Of a stretch of 40,211 bases of DNA, positions 405 to 37,897 are shown piece by piece. How positions within the stretch are numbered: position 1 is the stretch's first letter; each line of letters starts with the position of its first letter. The stretch spans positions 1 to 40,211 of the forward strand of contig DASQGS010000181.1 of NCBI GenBank assembly GCA_035632455.1, given 5' to 3'. The position numbers were made by a program, and so were the translations under genes. The DNA comes from Thermoanaerobaculia bacterium (GTDB taxonomy: Bacteria > Acidobacteriota > Thermoanaerobaculia > Gp7-AA8). Under the pieces are notes generated by a model. It saw only the letters and a list, made by a program, of their open reading frames with translations, had not been told where the DNA came from and did no database searches.

Positions 405-668
405 TCATTCTCCAGTCACGGTCGCGTGCGCTGCCTCGCAGGCCGCGAGGATCTCCTGGTAGAGGTAGAAGGCGAGCTCGGGATCGATGGGCTCGGCGCT
501 GCCGCGGTTCACGATCTCTGCGATCTGCGAGGCGTAGTAGGACGCCGGCGGCAGGCGGTCTCCGCCGTCGCGCAAAATGCGAAATCCCACCGTCAACTCC
601 TCTTCGAGCTCCCTACGGAATGCTCCGCTCTCGAGGTCGTGGGCCAGGTTCGCGTAATCGACATTCAT
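405..668 (-). CDS. Hypothetical small protein (87 aa)
   Basis: Internal ATG at 668 of ORF 405..758 (MNVDYANLAHDLESGAFRRELEEEL...). It starts 27 nt after the stop of the upstream metalloprotease-like gene on the same strand. No recognisable family. Confidence 0.5.
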   Translation of the reverse strand: MNVDYANLAHDLESGAFRRELEEELTVGFRILRDGGDRLPPASYYASQIAEIVNRGSAEPIDPELAFYLYQEILAACEAAHATVTGE

Positions 669-694
669 GGCACGAGCAGAGCCGCGGCGGCCCG

Positions 695-1858
695 TTACTC
701 CTTCGCTCCGATTCTCGCCAGCACCGAGGGATCGGCGCCGTAGGCCACGCCGGCCCATGTGCCATTTCGCTGCGATCGGGCATCGATCCCACGGTCGCGG
801 AGAAACGCTAGATACGCCTGGAGGAACGTCGCCGCGTCAGCCTCGCTTTCCCACTGCGTCAAGACCAGCACGCTGGTCTCGCAGCGCGCATTCTGAACGA
901 CCGTCGCGCTGTCGCTGACCCACCCCGTCGACGCCGCCTCGCCGAGGAGGAAGCGCCAATGAAACTCGCCGAGATGCTCCACGACAAGCGTCCCGGGGAT
1001 GGTTGGTGGCAAATTGGACGGCACCGCTTTCGGGTCAGCGGCGACACGCGCAAAATACTCCGCGGGATGGAGGATCTCGCGCGTGGTTCGCGGCGGGTTC
1101 GCGTGGACGCGATCGAGTGCCGCCCATCCGCCGCGACGATATGCGTCGATCACGAACGCCAGCCCGTCGAGGTAGGGAAATTTCATGGATTCGACGAAGT
1201 ATCGCGGAGAGCCGGCGGGGATCGTTCGATCGGACGCGCCGGCGTTCTTGAGGGCATTCAGCAAAAAGTCGTTCTGCATCACCTCGTCCAGCGAACGTCC
1301 GCCCTTGTCGAGAATCGCCGCCATCATCACCAGGGACGCCTCGCCCTCGATCAGCGAATCGTAGGCCAGCTCGGCGTCCCAATCTCCCTGAATCCGTTCC
1401 AGTTTCTCGCCTGCGCCGAAGCGCTGATCCTGGAGCGCGTGCGTGAGCTCGTGAACGGCGACGCTCTCCTCGAGCATCGGCAGCTCCGCGCCCTCGAGCG
1501 CGGGAGGCGGTTTGTCCAACGAATAGAAGACGTGCGCCAAAGGATCGTAGAACGCGAGAATCTGCTCCTGATACAGGTCGAGGAGCTTATCGAGAAGATG
1601 GGGATCGTCATCCACGAGCTGCAGAGCGCGGAGGACCACGATGTAGTCATCCGGCGAGACCGGCATGCTCTTGAGCATCTGCTGCCTGAGGATGGCCGGA
1701 AGCTCCTCGCGCGTGACGGTGCGATGATCGACTTTGTGGAGAAACGAGCGCTGGCGCAGCCGCTCGACGGTGCGGATCTCGCTGCTCAGATCGGACGCTT
1801 GCGCCGCCGCGGCAGCGAGAAGGATCGAGACCAGAAGGCCTCGCAGGGTCACGGACAT
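695..1858 (-). CDS. Secreted HExxH zinc-metalloprotease-like protein
   Basis: ORF 695..1930. The likely start is ATG at 1858 (MSVTLRGLLVSILLAAAAAQA, a signal peptide). An HELTH (HExxH) motif lies in VAVHELTHALQDQRFG. Exact family not recognised. Confidence 0.7.
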   Translation of the reverse strand: MSVTLRGLLVSILLAAAAAQASDLSSEIRTVERLRQRSFLHKVDHRTVTREELPAILRQQMLKSMPVSPDDYIVVLRALQLVDDDPHLLDKLLDLYQEQILAFYDPLAHVFYSLDKPPPALEGAELPMLEESVAVHELTHALQDQRFGAGEKLERIQGDWDAELAYDSLIEGEASLVMMAAILDKGGRSLDEVMQNDFLLNALKNAGASDRTIPAGSPRYFVESMKFPYLDGLAFVIDAYRRGGWAALDRVHANPPRTTREILHPAEYFARVAADPKAVPSNLPPTIPGTLVVEHLGEFHWRFLLGEAASTGWVSDSATVVQNARCETSVLVLTQWESEADAATFLQAYLAFLRDRGIDARSQRNGTWAGVAYGADPSVLARIGAKE

Positions 1859-3230: not shown

Positions 3231-4982
3231 ATGCCTACAAATGCAGCACTTAATGACGTATCGACCATCATGAATTCCTTCGTATTCATGTTGCCGTCGA
3301 TGCAGCACACCATCCGCCCGGTGATGTTGAGCCCCGTCGACCCTGAGGTTCTTCCATTTCTCGCCGTTCTGATAGCCGTTCTGCTCGTGGTCATGGCCCG
3401 GCGCGAGCGTTTCGCACATCTCAGCGGAGCCCAGCGATTGCATGGCATGGCGCCCCTCTCGACCGGCGTGCCGGTTCTGGCGATCGGCGCCGGAGAGGCA
3501 TTCAGCGCACGTCCTGAGCGCGAACCAGAGATCCCTTCGCACGAGACCAGCGACGCGCTCGCCGATCTCGTCACCCTCTCCGGCGATTGGGTGTGGGAGT
3601 GCGATGCCGAGGGACGCTACACGTTCGCGGGAACGCAGATTCACGAGATCCTCGGCTATGCGCCGGAAGAGGTCATCGGAAAGACGGCGTGCGACCTTGC
3701 TCTGCCCGAGGAAACTCGGCGGATTCGAAGCCTCCTCCTTCCATTGCTCAGAAGCCCGCGATCCTTCGCCCGAATCGAAGTGACCGCCCTCCATCGCGAT
3801 GGCCGGCCGGTTCTGCTGGAAGTCAGCGGCATGCCATTGATCGGCTCGGGCGGTCAAGCGAACGGCTATCGCGGCCTGGTGCGCGACGTGACTGAGCTGG
3901 AGGCGCACAAGCGGGAACGACAACTCCTTGCGATGGCCATCGAGAACGCCGGCGACGTCGTCATAATCACCGACCGCGAGGGGAGGATCGAATACGTAAA
4001 TCCGGCTTTCGAGACCGTCACCGGCTATCGCCGCAAGGACATCGAGGGCGCGACGCCTCGGATTCTGAAAAGCGGCCGGCAACCGGCTGAGTATTACGAG
4101 AAGATGTGGAGCCGCCTTCTCGCCGGCGAGAACTGGAGCGGCCACTTCGCCAATCTGCGGCGCGACGGCAGTCCCTACTACGCCGATGCAACCGTGTCGC
4201 CGATACTCGATGAGCAGGGTGCGATCACCGGCTTCGTCGCAGTCCAACGCGACGTGACCGAGAAGATGTCCCTTCTCGACCGTCTGCACTCGGCGATGGA
4301 GATGGAGCGGTTCGGGAACCTGGTCAGCGGCGTGGCCCACGAGGTTCGCAATCCTTTAAATGCCATCCAGGCTGCGGTGGGCGCGCTCGAGCTCGAATTC
4401 GGCTCTGAGGCCGAGGCCGGACCGCTGTTCGGCATCGTGCGCTCGCAAGTCGGCCGGCTTGCGCGGCTCATGAGCGATCTGCTGGTCATCGGGAAACCGG
4501 TAGATCAGGCACTTCTTCAAATCAGACCGGTCGCCGAGGTGGTGTCGGAGGCGTTGGCCGTGTGGCGGGAAGCGCATCCCGACGTAAACGAGCGCCGTGT
4601 CCGCTTCACCGCAGGTAGCGGAGCGACCGTCAACGTTGACGTCGCACGCCTGCACCAGGTCGTCGTCAACCTGCTCGACAACGCTCTCCAGCACAGTGAT
4701 TCGGACAGCGAGATCGTCCTCGGTGTCGATGACATCCTGGACCGCTCGCGGATCTTTGTACGCGATGCCGGCTCCGCGGTGATCCCATCGCTCATCGCTC
4801 GGGTATTCGACCCTTTCTTCACCACTCGTCCCGGCGGGACCGGGCTCGGCCTGAGCCTCGTCAAGAGCATCGTCGAGCAGCATGGCGGGACCGTGTCGAT
4901 CCGCAACAACGAGCCACCACCCGGCTGCACCGTGGAGGTAGTTCTTCCGCCGGTGCCCGATAGCGAGAGGAGACGCGCATGA
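3231..4982 (+). CDS. PAS-domain sensor histidine kinase (one TM segment, tandem PAS, HisKA, HATPase_c)
   Basis: ORF 3132..4982. H-box SGVAHEVRNPLNAI. G-boxes DAGSAV and GTGLGLSLVKSIVEQHGG. Two PAS-like segments (WVWECDAEGRYTF..., IENAGDVVIITDREGRIEYVNPAFETVTGY). The start is ambiguous: GTG 3132, ATG 3231 or ATG 3270. Confidence 0.9.
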   Translation: MPTNAALNDVSTIMNSFVFMLPSMQHTIRPVMLSPVDPEVLPFLAVLIAVLLVVMARRERFAHLSGAQRLHGMAPLSTGVPVLAIGAGEAFSARPEREPEIPSHETSDALADLVTLSGDWVWECDAEGRYTFAGTQIHEILGYAPEEVIGKTACDLALPEETRRIRSLLLPLLRSPRSFARIEVTALHRDGRPVLLEVSGMPLIGSGGQANGYRGLVRDVTELEAHKRERQLLAMAIENAGDVVIITDREGRIEYVNPAFETVTGYRRKDIEGATPRILKSGRQPAEYYEKMWSRLLAGENWSGHFANLRRDGSPYYADATVSPILDEQGAITGFVAVQRDVTEKMSLLDRLHSAMEMERFGNLVSGVAHEVRNPLNAIQAAVGALELEFGSEAEAGPLFGIVRSQVGRLARLMSDLLVIGKPVDQALLQIRPVAEVVSEALAVWREAHPDVNERRVRFTAGSGATVNVDVARLHQVVVNLLDNALQHSDSDSEIVLGVDDILDRSRIFVRDAGSAVIPSLIARVFDPFFTTRPGGTGLGLSLVKSIVEQHGGTVSIRNNEPPPGCTVEVVLPPVPDSERRRA

Positions 4983-21013: not shown

Positions 21014-21051
21014 TTGCGGCCGGGACGGCCGCGCTCCTTTAGAATGTGCGT

Positions 21052-22422
21052 ATGAACAAGCTCCGCACCTTCGTACTGCTCTTCGCGCTCACGATCGGCT
21101 GCAAGCCGATGGCCGAATCGCAGACCATCTCGGGTCAGCCGAGACAGGAACATGCGCAGATCCCGCCGACGGTGAGCGCGGTTCGCCGCACGCCGGTGGT
21201 GGTGGTTGCCCACGACATTCTTCCGTGCGTCGTCAACATTCAGACCGAGGCCACGATCCGGCGGCGAGAAGTCGACCCCTTCTTCGACCCGTTCAGCATC
21301 TTCGGAGGCCGCGACCGCGTGTATCAGTCGCAATCGCTGGGCTCGGGATTCGTCTGGTCCTCCGACGGGATCGTCGTCACCAACAATCACGTGGTGGAAG
21401 GTGCGTCGCGGATCACGGTCAACTTCAATGACGGTTCGCAGCTTGCCGCGAAGCTGATCGGCGTCGATCCTGACAGCGATCTGGCCGTGTTGCGCGTCGA
21501 TTCCAGAAAACTGTCGGCCGCGCCGATCGGCACGTCGTCCGACCTGATGATCGGCGAGACAGTCATCGCCATCGGCAACCCGTTCGGCTTGAGCGGCTCG
21601 GTGACCACGGGCGTGGTCTCTGCTTTAGGCCGGTCCGTGCCGTCGAAGGAGGCGGGGCGGACCTTCACGGATTTCATCCAAACCGACGCTTCGATCAATC
21701 CCGGCAATTCCGGCGGGCCCCTCGTCAACATCGAAGGGCGCGTCATCGGCATCAACGTCGCGATCTACGCGCAAGCGCAGAACATCGGCTTCGCCATCCC
21801 TGTCGACCGGGCGAAGAAAGTGATTCAGGATCTGCTCCGCTACGGCGAGGTCCACAGCGCCTGGATCGGGGCGGTCACGGCGACGCTGACGCCGGAGGAG
21901 GCGAAGCGCATCGGCGCGCATGCGCAGAAGGGCGCGCTCGTGGCGCGCGTGTTCGCAGGCTCGCCTGCGCAGGCCGCGGGTCTGCGCGCCGGAGATGTGA
22001 TCGTGGCCGTCAACGGCAAGGGCGTCGATTCGCGCGAAGCCTTCTCCACGCTCACGGCCACTGCATCGATCGGACAGGCCGTCGAGGTGACGTTCATGCG
22101 CGAGGGTGGCAGCTCCCGCACTTCCGTCCGTCCCGGCGAGCCGCCGGCGAACCTCGGGCTGCGGATCCTCGAAGACGTGGCCGGCCTGCGTGTCAGCGAT
22201 GAGGGGAGGAACGTCGTCATCCAGAGCGTGCTCCGCGGATCTCGCAGTGAAAACATCGGCCTCGCCCCGGGCGACGTCATCGTCGGCATCAACGGCTCGG
22301 AGGTCCACTCGGTCAAGGATCTGAACAACGAGCTGAGCAAAGCCGCGGAACGCTCATCGATCGTGCTGTCAGTCGCGCGCGACCGGTACATCTACAACCT
22401 GACGTTCCCGATGGGCGTGTAA
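21052..22422 (+). CDS. htrA: HtrA/DegP-family periplasmic serine protease with two PDZ domains, lipoprotein-type signal
   Basis: ORF 21046..22422. ATG 21052 gives MNKLRTFVLLFALTIGC (lipobox). Catalytic triad contexts are VTNNHVV, DSDLAVL and GNSGGPLVN, followed by two PDZ-like segments. Confidence 0.95.
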   Translation: MNKLRTFVLLFALTIGCKPMAESQTISGQPRQEHAQIPPTVSAVRRTPVVVVAHDILPCVVNIQTEATIRRREVDPFFDPFSIFGGRDRVYQSQSLGSGFVWSSDGIVVTNNHVVEGASRITVNFNDGSQLAAKLIGVDPDSDLAVLRVDSRKLSAAPIGTSSDLMIGETVIAIGNPFGLSGSVTTGVVSALGRSVPSKEAGRTFTDFIQTDASINPGNSGGPLVNIEGRVIGINVAIYAQAQNIGFAIPVDRAKKVIQDLLRYGEVHSAWIGAVTATLTPEEAKRIGAHAQKGALVARVFAGSPAQAAGLRAGDVIVAVNGKGVDSREAFSTLTATASIGQAVEVTFMREGGSSRTSVRPGEPPANLGLRILEDVAGLRVSDEGRNVVIQSVLRGSRSENIGLAPGDVIVGINGSEVHSVKDLNNELSKAAERSSIVLSVARDRYIYNLTFPMGV

Positions 22423-22546
22423 GAAACCAGAAACCAGAAACTAGAAACTAGAAACTAGAAACTAGAAACTGGAAGTAGAAAGTAGCTGCCGCCTTCTGGT
22501 TTCTGGTTTCTGGTTTCTGGTTTCTAGTTTCTGGTTTCTGGTTTCC
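22422..22546. repeat. Heptamer-repeat hairpin: 7 x AGAAACY facing 7 x GGTTTCT, filling the convergent junction
   Basis: The left arm (22422-22470) is AGAAACC x2 then AGAAACT x5. The right arm (22498-22546) is GGTTTCT x4, AGTTTCT, GGTTTCT, GGTTTCC. The arms are about 49 nt with a loop of about 27 nt. The element starts at the last base of the htrA TAA and ends 3 nt before the stop of the minus-strand lipoprotein gene. Confidence 0.92.
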
Positions 22547-22548
22547 GG

Positions 22549-23187
22549 CTACGGTCTTCGGCGCCGGCGCGGCTCGGGCGCGGCGGTCTCCTGCATCTGC
22601 CAGCGCATGGGGATGGCGTTGGTGACGAGGGACTCGGTGGCCTCCATCCACTTGGGAAAGAGCGCTGCCGCAAGGCTTCGATCGTGGACCGCGCGCTCGG
22701 GAATGCCGATGAGCTGCGCGAACGGCGCGGTGTCGTTGATGAAGTTGATCTTCACCTGCAGCGCGCGCGGGTAGTGAATGAACGGCGCGGTACTGGACTG
22801 CGGGACGAGGATCGACACATGGGCCGCCGTCGCGAAGGACTTCTTGTCGCCCGGGTTGACCTGCTGGAGGCGGGGAAGAAGCTCCATGCCGGGCACCTCC
22901 GTGCCGAGGGAGACAGTCACGGTCTGAGTCTCGGGATCGTAGGAGCTCTCGGGCATGATCTCGGCGATGGCGATGGCGGTCTTCCGCTCGTTCGTGATCG
23001 TGTAGCTGAGCGAGATCACCGAGTTCGCCGAGAGTTGATCGTTGTCGATCTCGACGTCGATCCGCACGCCGTTCTCCGTGGCGACCACGCGGCGGGGCTG
23101 CTTGAGATCCACCGGCTTCGACGTCGAGCAGGCAGGCAGAAACGAAGAGACAACGAGCACCGCCAGGACACCGTTCAGGCGTTTCAC
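22549..23187 (-). CDS. Hypothetical lipoprotein (212 aa)
   Basis: MKRLNGVLAVLVVSSFLPAC-STSKP (lipobox LPAC). No family recognised. Coding-like composition on this strand. Confidence 0.7.
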   Translation of the reverse strand: MKRLNGVLAVLVVSSFLPACSTSKPVDLKQPRRVVATENGVRIDVEIDNDQLSANSVISLSYTITNERKTAIAIAEIMPESSYDPETQTVTVSLGTEVPGMELLPRLQQVNPGDKKSFATAAHVSILVPQSSTAPFIHYPRALQVKINFINDTAPFAQLIGIPERAVHDRSLAAALFPKWMEATESLVTNAIPMRWQMQETAAPEPRRRRRP

Positions 23188-23256: not shown

Positions 23257-23353
23257 GAAAAAGCAGAAGGCAGAAAGCAGAAAGCAGAAATGGTTCTGCG
23301 CGAGAACGTCACTCTTGGCAGATGCCACTTCTGCTTTCTGCCTTCTGCTTTTC
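23257..23353 (-). terminator. Heptamer-repeat hairpin (RGCAGAA units) abutting the lepA stop; probable lepA terminator
   Basis: The plus-strand arm is GAAAAAGCAGAAGGCAGAAAGCAGAAAGCAGAAATGG (23257-23293) and the other arm is CCACTTCTGCTTTCTGCCTTCTGCTTTTC (23325-23353). 24 nt (AAAAGCAGAAGGCAGAAAGCAGAA) pair perfectly, and the left arm has one extra heptamer. In lepA-sense RNA the hairpin ends in CUUUUUC. Confidence 0.8.
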
Positions 23354-25278: not shown

Positions 25279-25312
25279 AAGCAGTGATCAGTGGTCAGTG
25301 GTCGGTGGTCGG
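25279..25312. repeat. CAGTGGT heptamer array (family 1), no inverted partner
   Basis: AAGCAGTGATC AGTGGTC AGTGGTC GGTGGTC GG, directly downstream (in gene sense) of the GT2 stop at 25317. It shares the AAGCAGTGATCAG head with 31428-31440 and with the reverse complement of 37880-37897. Confidence 0.8.
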
Positions 25313-25316
25313 CGCG

Positions 25317-26252
25317 TCATCCTGAGCGTGATTCTCCCGGCATCGATCGCTCCAATAGCCGCGGACCCTGCCTCCGCAGTCGCAGCGCCCCGAAATATCC
25401 TCTCGCCTCTCCGATCAACTTCGCCGGAATCCACCACGGATGCCGGAGCAGATAGCGAGTGGCGATGGTCTTCTGCAAACGGGTTGCCGCGTACCTCCAC
25501 ATCGGCCCGCGGAAGTGTTGAAGGGCGAAGTAGTAGTCCCCGATCGAATGCGCCGCCGACGATGTGCGGCGATGGTCGCCGTAGGTGCGGACGCCGCCGG
25601 ATGCGATCCTCAGATGTCGAATACCGGCGCCCGGCTCGAACCAGATCGCTCCACCGGCATCGACGACGCGGCGGGCGAAATCGGTCTCGAACCGATATGC
25701 CGTGCCGATGTAGTTCTCGTCGAACCCACCAAGCGCGAGGGCCCGCTCGCGAACGACGGAGAGATTGCCGGCCATGACGTTCTCCACGCGGGTACCGGCG
25801 CTGGAGTTGAACAGGAAGTCGAGATCGGGAATCTGCCCTGGCCGAGCAGCCGGTCGCTCGAACGACACCGGCGTCTCTCCCGGCTGAAGGATCTGACCGA
25901 CGACCGCCCAGATCGATGCGTCGCCATGGCGCAGAGCGTGCTGCACCACGAGGTTGCCGATCGGCTCGATGTCGTCATCGAGAAACAGCACGAGCGGTTT
26001 GCCCGCCAGCAACAGCGCAACGTTCATCGCCCTCGGAATCGAAGGCCGGTCGAGCCGCTCCCACCGAATCGTTCCTGCGGCGCTCCACGCTTCAAGACGG
26101 GCGAGGATCTGCTCCGGATGCTGCGCGGTTTGATCGACAACGAGAATCTCCCCAGGCGGATCAGGGAGCTCCAGCAGGCGGGCGATCGTCTCGACGAGAA
26201 TCGGACCACGGTTGTAGCTCGGAATCGCGACCGTCACGTCCGATGCGTGCAT
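25317..26252 (-). CDS. Family 2 glycosyltransferase
   Basis: ATG 26252 gives MHASDVTVAIPSYNRGPILVETIARLLEL...ILVVDQT...FLDDDIEP (GT-A DxD region). The last 8 codons (PGESRSG-stop) are encoded by a GCGTCATCCTGAGCG REP-like sequence. Confidence 0.85.
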   Translation of the reverse strand: MHASDVTVAIPSYNRGPILVETIARLLELPDPPGEILVVDQTAQHPEQILARLEAWSAAGTIRWERLDRPSIPRAMNVALLLAGKPLVLFLDDDIEPIGNLVVQHALRHGDASIWAVVGQILQPGETPVSFERPAARPGQIPDLDFLFNSSAGTRVENVMAGNLSVVRERALALGGFDENYIGTAYRFETDFARRVVDAGGAIWFEPGAGIRHLRIASGGVRTYGDHRRTSSAAHSIGDYYFALQHFRGPMWRYAATRLQKTIATRYLLRHPWWIPAKLIGEARGYFGALRLRRQGPRLLERSMPGESRSG

Positions 26253-27459: not shown

Positions 27460-27661
27460 TATGGACTGCGGCGGCTCGCCGCGTATGGACTGCGGCGGCG
27501 AGGCCGCCGCTTTCGATGACCACTGCGCAAGTCCACAGTTTCTTGAGCGTGCCGATTTAAGCTCGCTGCGTAAGCTCACGACCGCCGCTTCGTGGCGCGG
27601 AAAGCGGCAGCCTAGCTGCCGCAGTCCATATGACGGCGGCGAGCCGCCGCAGTCCATATGG
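27459..27661. repeat. 203-nt compound palindrome filling the SDR/tsaD convergent junction
   Basis: There are three stem segments. ATATGGACTGCGGCGGCTCGCCG (27459-27481) pairs perfectly with 27637-27659 (23 bp). TATGGACTGCGGC (27484-27496) pairs perfectly with 27618-27630 (13 bp). GCCGCCGCTTTCG (27503-27515) pairs imperfectly with 27598-27611. Each arm carries TATGGACTGCGGCGG twice. The central loop is about 82 nt. Confidence 0.92.
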
Positions 27662-28747: not shown

Positions 28748-28784
28748 GCTCACGCGAAGACGCGAAGGCGCGAAACGACCTCAG
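28748..28784. repeat. Half-copy of the CACGCGAAGACGCGAAGG family in the tsaD/valS divergent spacer
   Basis: GCTCACGCGAAGACGCGAAGGCGCGAAACGACCTCAG. The first 27 nt are identical to 317-343 and both copies end in ACC(C)TCAG. No inverted partner nearby. Confidence 0.75.
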
Positions 28785-31427: not shown

Positions 31428-31436
<9 letters not shown>

Positions 31437-31467
31437 TCAGCGGTTAGTGGTGATCAGTAGGTGGTGG
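31428..31467. repeat. Degenerate CAGTGGT-family array overlapping the valS stop
   Basis: CAGCAGTGATC AGCGGTT AGTGGTG ATCAGTA GGTGGTG GGC. The TGA of the CAGTGA head (31434-31436) is the valS stop codon. Confidence 0.6.
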
Positions 31468-31533: not shown

Positions 31534-31752
31534 ATGGCAGGAGCATCTCTAGACCAATTGCTCGAGCTCACCACCGATGAGCGACTCGATATCGTCCAAG
31601 CGATTTGGGACAGCTTGGCACAAAACCCGGAAGCCGTACCGATCACTCAGGCACAACGCGACGAGCTTGACCGAAGGCTGAAAGCCTACGAACAGGACGG
31701 CGATGCCGGAGAGAGTTGGGAATCGGTGAAGCGCTCGTTGCGAGACGAATGA
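31534..31752 (+). CDS. Putative addiction-module antitoxin component (72 aa)
   Basis: LLELTTDERLDIVQAIWDSLAQNPEAVPITQAQRDELDRRLKAYEQDGDAGESWESVKRSL. This fits the pattern of the 'putative addiction module component' family that pairs with ParE/RelE-type toxins (recognised from memory). Confidence 0.7.
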   Translation: MAGASLDQLLELTTDERLDIVQAIWDSLAQNPEAVPITQAQRDELDRRLKAYEQDGDAGESWESVKRSLRDE

Positions 31753-32621: not shown

Positions 32622-32736
32622 CGTCATCCTGAGGCGGCGGCACCCCGGAGGAGTAGAGCGCGCCGAAGGATCTCCTTGCGCCAACGGCGTTCCTGCCGAG
32701 GAGATCCTTCGCCGTCTACGCGGCTCAGGATGACGC
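32622..32736. repeat. Inverted pair of GTCATCCTGAG...GGATCTCC REP-like units (BIME-like) in the birA/qor convergent junction
   Basis: The left unit spans 32622-32678 (CGTCATCCTGAG...GAAGGATCTCCTTG). The right unit spans 32698-32736 (GAGGAGATCCTTCGCCGTCTACGCGGCTCAGGATGACGC). Both terminal boxes are perfectly complementary. The 19-nt spacer contains CGCC-AAC-GGCG. Confidence 0.88.
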
Positions 32737-33771: not shown

Positions 33772-33815
33772 GTCAGTGGTCAGTTAGTGGTCAGTGGTCA
33801 GTGGTTAGTGGTCAG
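33772..33815. repeat. CAGTGGT heptamer array (family 1), about 6 units
   Basis: GTCAGTGGT CAGTTAGTGGT CAGTGGT CAGTGGT TAGTGGT CAGG, located between the qor start and the GGDEF stop (33828). No inverted partner. Confidence 0.85.
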
Positions 33816-35235: not shown

Positions 35236-37347
35236 TCACGACGGAGCGGAGTCGGTCCACTTGCGAATCGATTCGAGGAGGTAGTCGTTGCCCATAAACG
35301 ACACGATGTCGCCGACGCGGCGGCCGATGAGTGCCTTCGCGACATCCGACTGGAGTGAATAGATTCCGCGCTCGGGCGCGGATTCCCATGGGCCAAGGAT
35401 GGTGATCTCGCGGCGAATGTCGCCGTTCGAGACTCCGACCTTCGTGCCCACTCGGACGGCCGTGATGTCGATCGCGGCCGGGTCGAGGACGCGAACCCGC
35501 GAGATCTCGCTCGAGAGCTCGCCGACGCGCGCGGACAGATATTCGGCGCGCTGGCGGGCGGCCTTGTACTCGAAGTTCTCGCGAAGGTCGCCCATCTCGC
35601 GCGCCGCCTGGATGGCTCTCGAGTTCTCGGGAATCTCGACGCGCTTGAGATGATCGAGCTCGGCGCGCTTCTTCTCCAGCATCTCCGCCGTCGCGTACAC
35701 AGGCTCGGATTGCGGCTCGCGAAGCGCCGGATATTTCATGATCAGCGCGTTCCGCAGATTCTCGCGGCGGTATTCCTCCAGGCTGCCGTAGCGCTCGAGC
35801 GAATCGAACAGCTTTCGGGCCTGCTCCTCGTTGTCTTCGGCCATGACGATCCGGGAAGCCAGACCACCCGTGTCGAAGATGTCTTTGAGTCGGGGGCGAA
35901 CCGCGGCGAACTCATCCGATCCGATGGCGTCGAGAACCTGGAAAAGCAGCGCATACGTGGCCTTGTCGCCGAGCGAGTCGTCGTCGGCCACTCGCTTGAC
36001 GTGCCACTGGAAGGCGCGCGGATGGCGGCGCGGATATCGCAGCGTCTCGTCCACGAGCCGGTCGCGCATCTCGGTCTCGCCTGCATTCTCGAGCGTTGAG
36101 ATAATCAGCGAGAGAATGCGTGGCTCGTCGTCGAGGAAGAAGACCTCGCCGAAGACCTTCGTCCAATCGGGGTGGCTCGCGCGAACGCTGCCGAGGGCGC
36201 GCTCGCGAAGAGGCTTGTCGCCGATGGCCGCAACAGTGCGCGATGCCATCGGTCCTCCGAGGAGCGACGCTGGATCGATGCTCGTCCCACGATCGCCGGG
36301 CATCGCTTCGAGCACGGCCAGAATCTGCCAGGCCATCGCTTGATCGCTTCTGGCCAGTTTGGTGGCCTGAACCTGGAGCACCGAGGCGAAGTGGTCTCCG
36401 AGCTCCTTGCTGCGGCTGCTGTGCTTGCGGGCGAGATCGAGCTTGGACTTGACGTCGGCTGCGTCGAAGTCGCGGCGGATGGTTTTCTCCGCATCATCCG
36501 CCGAGGCGTTCCAGGAGTACGTGGCCTTGGCGCCGGTGCCGCTGACGACGATCTGCGGGTTCTTGCGCGCCGAGGTCCACCAGCCGCTCCACTTGTCCTC
36601 CGGCACGATCCCTATCATGGCGTCGCGAGCCTCCGGCATGGTCATGGGACGGCCGAAGCTCTGCAGGAGGCGGGCGAATGTATCGGCCGGCTTGGCCTTG
36701 GCCTCGGCTCTGAGGCGGTCGGGAGCTGTGAACTTCTCGTGCAGCAGATGGCTGGGCGGAACCGGCGTCAGGAACTTTGCCGCGGCGCCGAGCGGCACGG
36801 AGACGCGCTTCTCTTTCTCGAAATCGAGCCGGCAAATGCCGAGCTCAGGGTTCAACTCGGTGACGATCCCCGCTCCGCGGCCGGCCATGAAGTAGGTCGC
36901 GCCTTCATCGTACTGGAGCCACGCCTCGATCTTCTCCGCGCGCTCGACGGGATTGCTGGCCGGATCGCTGAAGCCGGCAAAGTCGAACACACGCTTGAAG
37001 TTCTTTCGATCGGAAAACGCCCCTTTGAGCGCCTGCTCGATCGGGCCGCGGAAGTTCGCGGGATGCTTCGACATCCTGCCGAGCTCTTTCAGCACTTGCA
37101 GGCGCTGTGGCCAGAGCTTCCGCTCGAGCAGCGAGTCGGAGAGGAGGCCGATCAACGTGTCGGATTGGGTTCGCTGCTCTGCTTTCCGAAGTTGCTTCGC
37201 CACGCGGAGGAATGCCTCGGTATTTGAGGCGTCGGATTCGAGCTCGGACATCCAGAGCGATTCGACGTCGTCAAATTTCTTTTGCTCGATCAGAGCATTC
37301 GCATCTTCCGCAAACCCCAAAGCGATTCCCCCCGCAAGGTGTGACAT
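35236..37347 (-). CDS. Large GreA/GreB-family protein: ~550-aa unknown N-terminal region plus a C-terminal Gre-like module
   Basis: ATG 37347 (MSHLAGGIALGF...). The C-terminal ~150 aa read LEKKRAELDHLKRVEIPENSRAIQAAREMGDLRENFEYKAARQRAEYLSARVGEL...VGTKVGV...ITILGPWESAPERGIYSLQSDVAKALIGRRVGD, matching the Gre coiled-coil and FKBP-like domains. Confidence 0.8.
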   Translation of the reverse strand: MSHLAGGIALGFAEDANALIEQKKFDDVESLWMSELESDASNTEAFLRVAKQLRKAEQRTQSDTLIGLLSDSLLERKLWPQRLQVLKELGRMSKHPANFRGPIEQALKGAFSDRKNFKRVFDFAGFSDPASNPVERAEKIEAWLQYDEGATYFMAGRGAGIVTELNPELGICRLDFEKEKRVSVPLGAAAKFLTPVPPSHLLHEKFTAPDRLRAEAKAKPADTFARLLQSFGRPMTMPEARDAMIGIVPEDKWSGWWTSARKNPQIVVSGTGAKATYSWNASADDAEKTIRRDFDAADVKSKLDLARKHSSRSKELGDHFASVLQVQATKLARSDQAMAWQILAVLEAMPGDRGTSIDPASLLGGPMASRTVAAIGDKPLRERALGSVRASHPDWTKVFGEVFFLDDEPRILSLIISTLENAGETEMRDRLVDETLRYPRRHPRAFQWHVKRVADDDSLGDKATYALLFQVLDAIGSDEFAAVRPRLKDIFDTGGLASRIVMAEDNEEQARKLFDSLERYGSLEEYRRENLRNALIMKYPALREPQSEPVYATAEMLEKKRAELDHLKRVEIPENSRAIQAAREMGDLRENFEYKAARQRAEYLSARVGELSSEISRVRVLDPAAIDITAVRVGTKVGVSNGDIRREITILGPWESAPERGIYSLQSDVAKALIGRRVGDIVSFMGNDYLLESIRKWTDSAPS

Positions 37348-37525
37348 TGCCGAGCGCAGTTGCCGGGCGGGCGCCCGGCGCGCGCGGGCGCAGATTGTAA
37401 CCTTCGGCAGAGGAAAAAGCGCGGGCCGGCGGATATTCCTTGACGGAGGCGCCGGAATACGCCCCGCCATGACCACGTTCCCGCCGCGGACCCATCACCG
37501 GACAATCGACAGATCGAGGAGAATC

Positions 37526-37698: not shown

Positions 37699-37897
37699 AA
37701 AGCAGTGAGCAGTTGTCAGTTGTCGGGAAAAGCAGTGAGCAGTTGTCAGTTGGTCGGTGGTCAGCAAGGCTGGCGCTCGCGGTCGCTGCAACGACTCACC
37801 GCTCTCCAACCCGAAGACAAAGGCTGATCGCCGCTCTTCTGACAACTGACCACTGCTTCTCCTGACCACTGACCACTGACAACAGATCACTGCTTCA
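37699..37897. repeat. ~200-nt compound palindrome of the CAGTGGT/CAGTTGT family filling the convergent junction before mpl
   Basis: The left arm carries AAAGCAGTGAGCAGTTGTCAGTTG twice (37699-37722 and 37729-37752, 24/24 identical) and then GTCGGTGGTCAG. The right arm (37839-37897) is CTGACAACTGACCACTGCTTCT CCTGACCACTGACCACTGACAACAGATCACTGCTTCAG, an imperfect reverse complement with two sub-units. The mpl stop (37887-37889) lies inside the AAGCAGTGA head. Confidence 0.88.

Follow-up and report, generated by a model that had tools for sequence, protein, structure and literature searches.

The stretch analysed here, referred to throughout as the window, is the whole 40,211-nt contig of a metagenome-assembled genome (MAG) from Thermoanaerobaculia (Acidobacteriota). 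In it, the convergent junction between an htrA gene and a lipoprotein gene is filled by one hairpin whose arms each consist of seven tandem heptamers. This hairpin belongs to the paired heptanucleotide arrays, a known class that is still unexplained, and within that class it is an extreme case with reversed polarity. Hairpins built from 7-base repeats are common in Thermoanaerobaculia and in other soil bacteria. For their origin and maintenance we lean towards replication slippage combined with copying from arm to arm, with only a generic role as a 3'-end hairpin for both convergent mRNAs. The stop-to-stop gap spans 126 nt (22423-22548), the hairpin element occupies 22422-22546, and the parts of the junction are as follows.

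21046-22422, plus strand: htrA/DegP-type serine protease gene with Trypsin_2 and two PDZ domains; its TAA (22420-22422) abuts the hairpin
22422-22470, plus strand: 5' arm, two AGAAACC units followed by five AGAAACT units; it shares its first base with the final A of the htrA stop codon
22471-22497, plus strand: apical part, in which GGAAG (22471-22475) pairs with CTTCT (22493-22497) via two G.T positions around the loop 22476-22492
22498-22546, plus strand: 3' arm, GGTTTCT x4, AGTTTCT, GGTTTCT, GGTTTCC
22549-23187, minus strand: gene for a 212-aa lipoprotein with a signal peptide and lipobox FLPAC; its stop TAG (22549-22551) lies 2-3 nt from the hairpin

The consensus of the arms is (AGAAACY)7 on the left and (RGTTTCY)7 on the right, and the stem reaches 53-61 bp at 37% GC with a loop of ~17 nt. 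Both arms were found as arrays by Tandem Repeats Finder (TRF; period 7, 9.3 and 7.4 copies), and a repeat search paired 22423-22475 with 22493-22545 (53 nt, 91% complementary, spacing 17 nt) and returned ten slipped registers besides. The two-unit 13-mer AGAAACYAGAAAC has 12 matches in the window, all of them within the hairpin, where 0.04 would be expected by chance, and the AGAAACY array is confined to this one locus of the 40 kb. Outer units 1-3 are Watson-Crick paired save for A22422 opposite C22546 and include a compensated AGAAACT/AGTTTCT pair. The four inner unit pairs place T opposite G, and two more T.G/G.T positions lie in the GGAAG/CTTCT extension. A first-pass annotation made from the sequence alone had described the filled gap, the seven plus seven heptamers, the pairing of the outer and inner units and the possibility of slipped registers, and all of these were recovered on direct reading, unit-by-unit pairing and repeat search.

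Folding of both senses bore out the further proposal that the htrA-sense RNA is stabilized by G-U pairs: the predicted energy is -90.0 kcal/mol (z -13.8) for the plus strand against -72.4 kcal/mol (z -11.7) for the minus strand, with 0/200 shuffles as good in either case, and the DNA fold is -50.3 kcal/mol (z -11.7). A canonical U-tract is absent, as had also been claimed; CGGCUACGG comes after the stem on the plus strand, and on the minus strand there is only UUUCUUAC at the stem end, partly within the stem. Scans of the window with Rfam covariance models gave no hit at the gathering threshold, and a tRNA/tmRNA scan of the window found none. No target-site duplication was found at the hairpin, its flanks GCGTGTA and GGCTACG having no common direct repeat. 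The hairpin is not a fold-back assembly chimera, because its flanks are unrelated genes with intact stops. The lipoprotein matched no Pfam family, and it ends in RRRRRP as its homologues do.

The first-pass annotation had implied a one-off structure tailored to its junction, and this did not survive comparison with relatives, as the class extends across the lineage and occurs in co-directional gaps, divergent gaps and operons. A scan of species-representative genomes yielded 80 loci with HtrA orthologues of 67-77% identity which, together with the window, amount to 686 kb. Among arrays of at least three copies in this set, period 7 accounts for 83, period 6 for 31, period 8 for 15 and period 9 for 14; in the window itself, period 7 is the sole period from 4 to 12 to have such arrays (5 vs 0). 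The period-7 arrays sit in gaps or at the extreme edges of crude open reading frame (ORF) calls, and comprise ~46 different units. When hairpins were called by pairing TRF arrays with an inverted partner within 250 nt, 26 inverted pairs emerged, 23 of them with period 7, and the largest is the window element. Stems of at least 20 bp occupy ~30% of intergenic gaps of 30-700 nt (80/270). A separate metagenome set gave 140 period-7 arrays vs at most 12 for any other period. The same architecture is found in the multi-megabase, presumably long-read assemblies OY970284.1 (locus L039) and CAVWUH010000002.1 (locus L038). In the indexed literature we found no paper joining Thermoanaerobaculia with intergenic repeats.

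This larger sample also bears on strand asymmetry. Watson-Crick pairs make up 92% of aligned positions in the 26 hairpins, and the mismatches divide into 22 plus-strand wobbles, 23 minus-strand wobbles and 18 transversions. Hairpins between co-directional genes have no sense-strand advantage in fold energy; the one in L039 favours the antisense by 23 kcal/mol. Four of the wobble positions in the window hairpin are not independent, since they go back to the amplification of a single mutated unit (AGAAACT) within the left arm. The G-U asymmetry is thus real in the window hairpin but is not a trait of the class and does not look functional, and the implication of the first-pass annotation that it serves one transcript is not upheld. 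At the level of the class, the near-equal wobble counts and the co-directional fold energies rule out strand-specific RNA selection.

The AGAAACY unit itself is widespread. A metagenome scan for four AGAAACY units matched at least 120 contigs, and the 80 that were fetched range from 34 to 68% GC, with an inverted partner in 26/80. Loops are not conserved among the AGAAACY hairpins. Several of these hairpins lie inside operons: between the genes for ribosomal proteins S11 and S4 (L111), between the gene for HslV and one for an AAA ATPase, interpreted as hslU (L117), after the S9 gene (L158), and after the S5 gene, ahead of a short ORF read as L30, a label not checked against Pfam (L084). Such structures are therefore tolerated at sites where efficient termination would do harm. 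The divergent gap before htrA also holds class members, and heptamer hairpins occur in three genomes at a further junction, the divergent gap before an ABC-transporter gene. Restriction of the class to gene 3' ends was ruled out by these divergent-gap and within-operon members.

The arms follow a polarity rule. In 25/25 informative Thermoanaerobaculia pairs (~13 independent unit families) the 5' arm has more G than C, and the separate metagenome set likewise has the G-richer arm on the 5' side in 12/12 non-AGAAACY pairs; arm order is identical whichever strand is read. AGAAACY pairs are arranged as RGTTTCT...AGAAACY at 22/26 loci and in the order of the window at 4/26. The window hairpin is reversed, with at least as much C as G in its 5' heptamer arm and a G-richer 3' arm, and all reversed cases begin directly at a stop codon. 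Stop codons are found in the 5'-arm unit of 8/16 unit families and in the 3'-arm unit of 0/16, a difference that is marginal against shuffled units (p ~0.03). Because 7 is not divisible by 3, a stop-bearing unit repeated three times places a stop in each reading frame immediately after the gene.

Units also recur between places that are not orthologous. The 8-nt unit ACGCGAAG is found at two window loci and in a hairpin on an unrelated metagenome contig (L128, 6650-6792), AAGGCAG in the window, L080 and L124, and CGGGGGT at three loci in L140. Some units are one mutation apart (CCAGAAA, GCAGAAA, CCAGCAA), and mixed arrays were seen in L106 and L140. Two simple descriptions were rejected on these grounds: a single genome-wide unit family by the ~46 units among 83 arrays, and purely locus-specific units by the recurrence of CAGTGGT, ACGCGAAG, AAGGCAG and CGGGGGT across loci or contigs.

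Comparison of orthologous junctions had been suggested as a check on whether units vary while complementarity is kept. Variation in unit sequence between genomes was confirmed, but the pair available in relatives is htrA facing a SprT-like gene, not htrA facing the lipoprotein gene. The convergent htrA/SprT-like pair was identified in 50 loci, with stop-to-stop distances of -4 to 558 nt (median 103). The gap is at most 15 nt in 7/50 and more than 60 nt in 38/50, and those 38 fold strongly. Many filled junctions are hairpins with tandem-repeat arms whose unit differs by genome, among them CAGAGCG, TTGCTGG, GTCGGCG, GCGCAAC, AGTGCCT, AAAGCAG, 8-mers, 9-mers and 20-mers. The closest HtrA relatives (79-81% identity) have another downstream gene, at gaps of 1, 43 and 7 nt; in the window, the pairing of htrA with a facing lipoprotein gene results from a rearrangement. 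On the lipoprotein side, the JGI contig P0002 carries an 84%-identical lipoprotein and is the sole contig that apparently shares the convergent neighbour, the identity of that neighbour being unchecked. The tail SRKAEGRNLKPESSEG of its predicted protein would read, in another frame, as an AGAAACC-like array ~two units shorter than that of the window. A protein-based metagenome scan with the lipoprotein as query returned no match.

A junction ~2 kb downstream, before a gene starting MILR, holds heptamer hairpins in many genomes and is more informative about how arrays change. The unit pair there is GGATTGA/TCAATCC in five genomes, GAATTGA/TCAATTC in one, AAATTGA/TCAATTT in two and CGGGGGT/ACCCCCG in a tight clade (89-97% HtrA identity), and every unit on both arms has the same variant. 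Because all units of both arms share the variant, the arrays change as a whole and keep their complementarity. Homogenisation within arrays together with arm-to-arm copying is a far easier route to this pattern than eight independent compensatory substitutions. L009 and L039, very close relatives with 97% HtrA identity, differ by point changes that are not compensated.

Repeats of this kind leave marks on assemblies and annotations. Contigs end inside heptamer arrays in L044 (5369-5441), L046 (2626-2687), L141 (1-43) and L115 (1380-1419), and many related contigs stop within ~100 nt past htrA. Because heptamer arrays break assemblies, caution is needed with any array copy number read from a MAG. 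ORF callers run into the arrays and produce false C-terminal extensions, such as the P0002 tail, or false N-terminal extensions of flanking genes (L009, L021, L030 and others). In another genus (L081), the convergent junction after the homologous lipoprotein gene is filled stop to stop (3633-3835) by a -166 kcal/mol hairpin that has no tandem arms, and the gap upstream of the lipoprotein homologue (2790-2935) holds a GACGGTG heptamer hairpin.

Apart from the element at the htrA junction, the window holds three further hairpins with short tandem-repeat arms and four single arrays, as well as hairpins at two other convergent junctions.

315-402, unstranded: 8-nt-unit hairpin, (ACGCGAAG) x3 and its complement; -54 kcal/mol, z -5.8; adjoins the stop of the ORF 405-758 (minus strand)
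23259-23352, unstranded: hairpin with arms (AAAGCAG/AAGGCAG) x4 and (CTGCTTT) x3-4; -59 kcal/mol, z -6.9; abuts the lepA stop (23354, minus strand)
25282-25312, plus strand: single unpaired array, CAGTGGT x4, just after the glycosyltransferase stop (25317, minus strand); unstructured, z ~0
27461-27660, unstranded: hairpin at the convergent junction of the short-chain dehydrogenase and TsaD genes; -140 kcal/mol, z -10.9
28752-28774: single array of the 8-nt unit ACGCGAAG
31431-31465, plus strand: single array, CAGTGAT/CAGCGGT/TAGTGGT; the valS stop TGA lies in its first unit
32622-32735: convergent-junction hairpin, a REP-like palindrome
33772-33815, plus strand: single array, (GTCAGTG/GTGGTCA) x6, just after the stop of a GGDEF gene (33828, minus strand); unstructured
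37699-37892, unstranded: composite hairpin of CAGTGAG/CAGTTGT/GGTCGGT units and their complements; -106.6 kcal/mol, z -5.9; overlaps the Mur-ligase stop (37887)

The unit of the hairpin beside lepA is one mutation from the AGAAACC unit (GCAGAAA vs CCAGAAA). Each arm of the hairpin at 27461-27660 consists of two tandem copies of a ~26-nt unit (TATGGACTGCGGCGGC...), and like hairpins are present in L035, L047 and L060. CAGTGGT (GTGGTCA) is a dispersed family, because it occurs at four separate intergenic loci within 40 kb (25282-25312, 31431-31465, 33772-33815 and 37842-37885, the last within the composite hairpin). The arrays at 25282 and 33772 are C-rich on the sense strand and lie right after stop codons. 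The palindrome at 32622-32735 belongs to a REP-like family of the form GTCATCCTGAGC...GCTCAGGATGAC with the inner pair GAAGGATCTCC/GGAGATCCTTC, seen again in the window at ~25316-25328 and in intergenic gaps of L018, L026, L031, L034, L048 and L052.

The genes of the window are ordinary housekeeping and signalling genes, and no transposase, RAYT or reverse transcriptase was found among the 34. Two of the coding regions deserve comment. In a 746-aa protein (35236-37476, minus strand), which greatly exceeds the usual length of GreA, GreA/GreB domains are confined to the C-terminus (residues 594-727), and the N-terminal 590 residues match no Pfam family. An uncalled small ORF (MAGASLDQLLELTTDERLDIVQAIWDSL...) lies at 31536-31730, between valS and the next called gene, whose start may be miscalled; the putative product of the small ORF may be an addiction-module antitoxin-type protein.

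We consider the following account the most probable, and somewhat better than even. Arrays of 7-nt units would expand and contract by replication slippage, and in the window hairpin the left arm would have gained copies of AGAAACT and the right arm copies of AGAAACC. The arms would be made or kept complementary by intra-strand template switching (quasipalindrome correction), not by base-by-base compensatory selection; template switching is able to create and maintain hairpins (PMC8794818). Since the element lies between two stop codons, both convergent mRNAs would carry it at their 3' ends, where it would fold into the 53-61 bp stem. As a generic barrier it would shield them from 3' exonucleases and somewhat damp read-through into the opposite gene, and the heptamer periodicity would be a trace of origin, not of function.

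Several observations weigh against this account. Slippage does not explain the strong rule of arm polarity, which the window hairpin breaks, and purely local slippage leaves the recurrence of unit families at non-orthologous loci and in different genomes unexplained. Array length has its mode at 4.3-4.4 units and does not follow a geometric decay, suggesting constraint, and the mode holds even for units unable to form G-quadruplexes. The equal counts of seven and seven units, despite four inner units that differ, need either selection for a flush stem or coincidence. Lastly, the RNA-level role of the window hairpin is one that we infer. A further reading, which we judge decidedly unlikely, is that the heptamer hairpins are a polar, actively generated or dispersed system organising intergenic transcription instead of passive products of slippage. 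The G-rich arm would then come first so that untranslated RNA never exposes a C-rich unstructured stretch to Rho, and the hairpins would also supply all-frame stops right after a gene, as the distribution of stop codons between 5'- and 3'-arm units might suggest. The form that permits termination would be represented by the rare reversed elements starting directly at a stop, such as the window hairpin, and by the C-rich single arrays that follow stops in the window, and a dedicated copying mechanism would account for the common vocabulary of units across loci and genomes.

A dedicated bidirectional terminator, in which a long hairpin lacking a U-tract halts RNA polymerase from both genes in a lineage with few canonical terminators, is the alternative with the most to recommend it, but we still regard it as unlikely. 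Canonical terminators have a GC-rich stem of 5-14 bp, a 3-8 nt loop and flanking A- and U-tracts. Bidirectional intrinsic terminators, in which one hairpin serves both transcripts of convergent genes, were reportedly described by Ju and colleagues in 2019, and the window hairpin resembles these in lying between two stops as one hairpin for two convergent transcripts. It fills the stop-to-stop gap exactly, all spacer-bearing convergent junctions of the window (22422, 27461, 32622) are filled by a large hairpin, and the junction in relatives has a hairpin or nothing. A consensus scan of the window found 17 canonical terminators, against 11.7 +/- 3.8 expected, and so no enrichment. The 3' arm is U-rich in both transcripts, and among the many slipped registers one could leave a GGUUUCU tail to act as the U-tract, in addition to the UUUCUUAC in which the minus-strand stem terminates. 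However, the scan did not call the hairpin, which differs from the canonical form in its stem of 53-61 bp (far above the ordinary size, as had been pointed out in the first pass), its 37% GC, its ~17-nt loop and its lack of flanking tracts. AGAAACY hairpins at S11/S4, at HslV/HslU, after S5 and after S9 stand where efficient termination would harm, and class members occupy divergent gaps. Furthermore, 22/26 AGAAACY hairpins have the opposite arm order and hence an A-rich 3' arm, relatives with a gap of 0-7 nt manage without a hairpin, and the pairing has no strand-specific conservation. The operon-internal hairpins, the missing U-tract and the lack of enrichment of canonical terminators argue against a dedicated terminator, and the window hairpin is most likely not a canonical, efficient intrinsic one.

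The recurrence of unit families at non-orthologous loci and in several genomes, the AGAAACY arrays in at least 120 metagenome contigs of such varied GC, and orthologous junctions that are empty in some genomes and filled in others would all suit a dispersed or mobile repeat. Such a copy, whether REPIN-like, resembling a miniature inverted-repeat transposable element (MITE) or an array with a cognate protein that recognises 7-nt units, would have been inserted at the stop-to-stop junction and maintained by its system. The polarity rule and the length mode likewise suggest a defined process or constraint, and families built on one unit throughout the genome have been described in Xanthomonas, Geobacter, Beggiatoaceae and cyanobacteria (PMC4692102, PMC2700814, PMC4679880). 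We nevertheless find this quite unlikely. Neither the termini nor the loop are conserved, AGAAACY is found at one place only in the 40-kb window, the genes there include no transposase, RAYT or reverse transcriptase, and the diversity of ~46 units among 83 arrays is joined by units that grade by single mutations inside one array, as local evolution predicts. A MITE was rejected by the lack of a target-site duplication, and other copies abut stops without duplications. It is highly improbable, finally, that the copy number or the join was made by the assembler of a short-read MAG. The window is a whole MAG contig, and contigs L044, L046 and L141, which end inside heptamer arrays, attest that such repeats disturb assembly. 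Against this, the flanks are different genes with intact, conserved C-termini, and at 124 nt the element falls short of the length of a typical read or of the largest k-mer, 141, inferred from the k141_ names of sister-MAG contigs. The independent JGI contig appears to carry its AGAAACC-like array directly after the orthologous lipoprotein gene, and the architecture recurs in OY970284.1 and CAVWUH010000002.1.

Among known elements, REP, BIME and REPIN sequences are transcribed intergenic palindromes at operon ends or within operons that act as barriers to 3' exonucleases and as weak terminators, at junctions that may be filled or empty. Most plausibly, the window hairpin would work like them. 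Its build is different: REPs have a conserved imperfect palindrome of 20-40 nt, a GTAG-type 5' signature and a cognate RAYT transposase, whereas the window hairpin has tandem-heptamer arms and no conserved motif beyond the unit, and the window holds neither a second copy of the unit pair nor a RAYT. A parallel in unit length is offered by the STRR heptamers of cyanobacteria, reportedly described by Mazel and colleagues in 1990; the CAGTGGT/GTGGTCA arrays of the window match STRR2 (TTGGTCA) at 6/7 positions. The TAACTGA heptamers of Beggiatoaceae and cyanobacteria likewise form dispersed intergenic families whose function and spread are unexplained (MacGregor 2015, PMC4679880). Both differ from the elements described here in consisting almost wholly of direct arrays (of 170 TAACTGA sets, one was inverted), in lying mostly just upstream of start codons, and in belonging to low-GC hosts of other phyla.

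Among long simple sequence repeats (SSRs), heptanucleotides show the strongest over-representation in many bacteria, and their proposed source is slippage of the polymerase, according to Mrazek (2007) as cited in PMC4679880 and PMC4692102. In a survey of 7,006 genomes, tandem heptamers were the commonest intergenic periodic repeat and gave no functional clue (bioRxiv 10.1101/309039). The window hairpin has the features of heptanucleotide SSRs, namely tandem 7-nt copies beyond chance in non-coding sequence within 0-50 bp of a stop, and also those of paired arrays, with inverted arrays of the same unit 17 nt apart that fold at z -13.8 / -11.7. In Geobacter metallireducens, four to five tandem heptamers (GGACCGG; MTYCTGA) occur at 15-49 loci and are annotated as putative regulatory sequences (Aklujkar et al. 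2009, PMC2700814). The MTYCTGA sites appear, judging by the legend of a supplementary figure (PMC2700814), to be drawn as strand-switching, hairpin-like alignments. Each Geobacter family has one unit and a fixed length, some copies lie inside genes, and there is no evidence of unit turnover at orthologous sites; the array-length mode near four units is common to Geobacter, Xanthomonas and the arrays studied here.

The closest counterpart is the GGGAATC family of Xanthomonas, with ~185 arrays per genome and 70-75 inverted pairs per genome near stop codons (Rehm et al. 2015, PMC4692102). Like the elements described here, these are intergenic tandem 7-nt units whose facing arrays on opposite strands could form stem-loops or cruciforms; they lie mostly 0-50 bp from a stop codon, some overlapping it, vary in length and sequence between close relatives at the same loci, and typically have ~four units. 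The differences are that each Xanthomonas genome has one G-rich consensus, read as a G-quadruplex former, while many units coexist in the Thermoanaerobaculia lineage, and that the arms of ~four units compare with seven in the window hairpin. By our reading of the description in PMC4692102, the Xanthomonas pairs also place the G-rich arm first, and the window hairpin is reversed. A G-quadruplex explanation was ruled out for AGAAACY, a unit with a single G; AGAAACY/RGTTTCT arrays reach GG at most.

The sole detailed study of the paired form invoked G-quadruplexes (PMC4692102). That explanation is weakened by finding the same architecture with non-quadruplex units, a typical arm length of ~four units, an unchanged arm polarity in the relatives (though not in the window hairpin), concerted change and junctions that are either filled or empty. 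Hundreds of Thermoanaerobaculia MAGs, complete chromosomes among them, make the lineage a tractable system for the origin and spread of long perfect stems. There is also a practical side, as short-read assemblies are broken by the arrays, which also make ORF calls too long or too short at gene ends. The class-level regularities found here, namely polarity, concerted change, the network of units and fill-or-empty junctions, merit genome-wide study.

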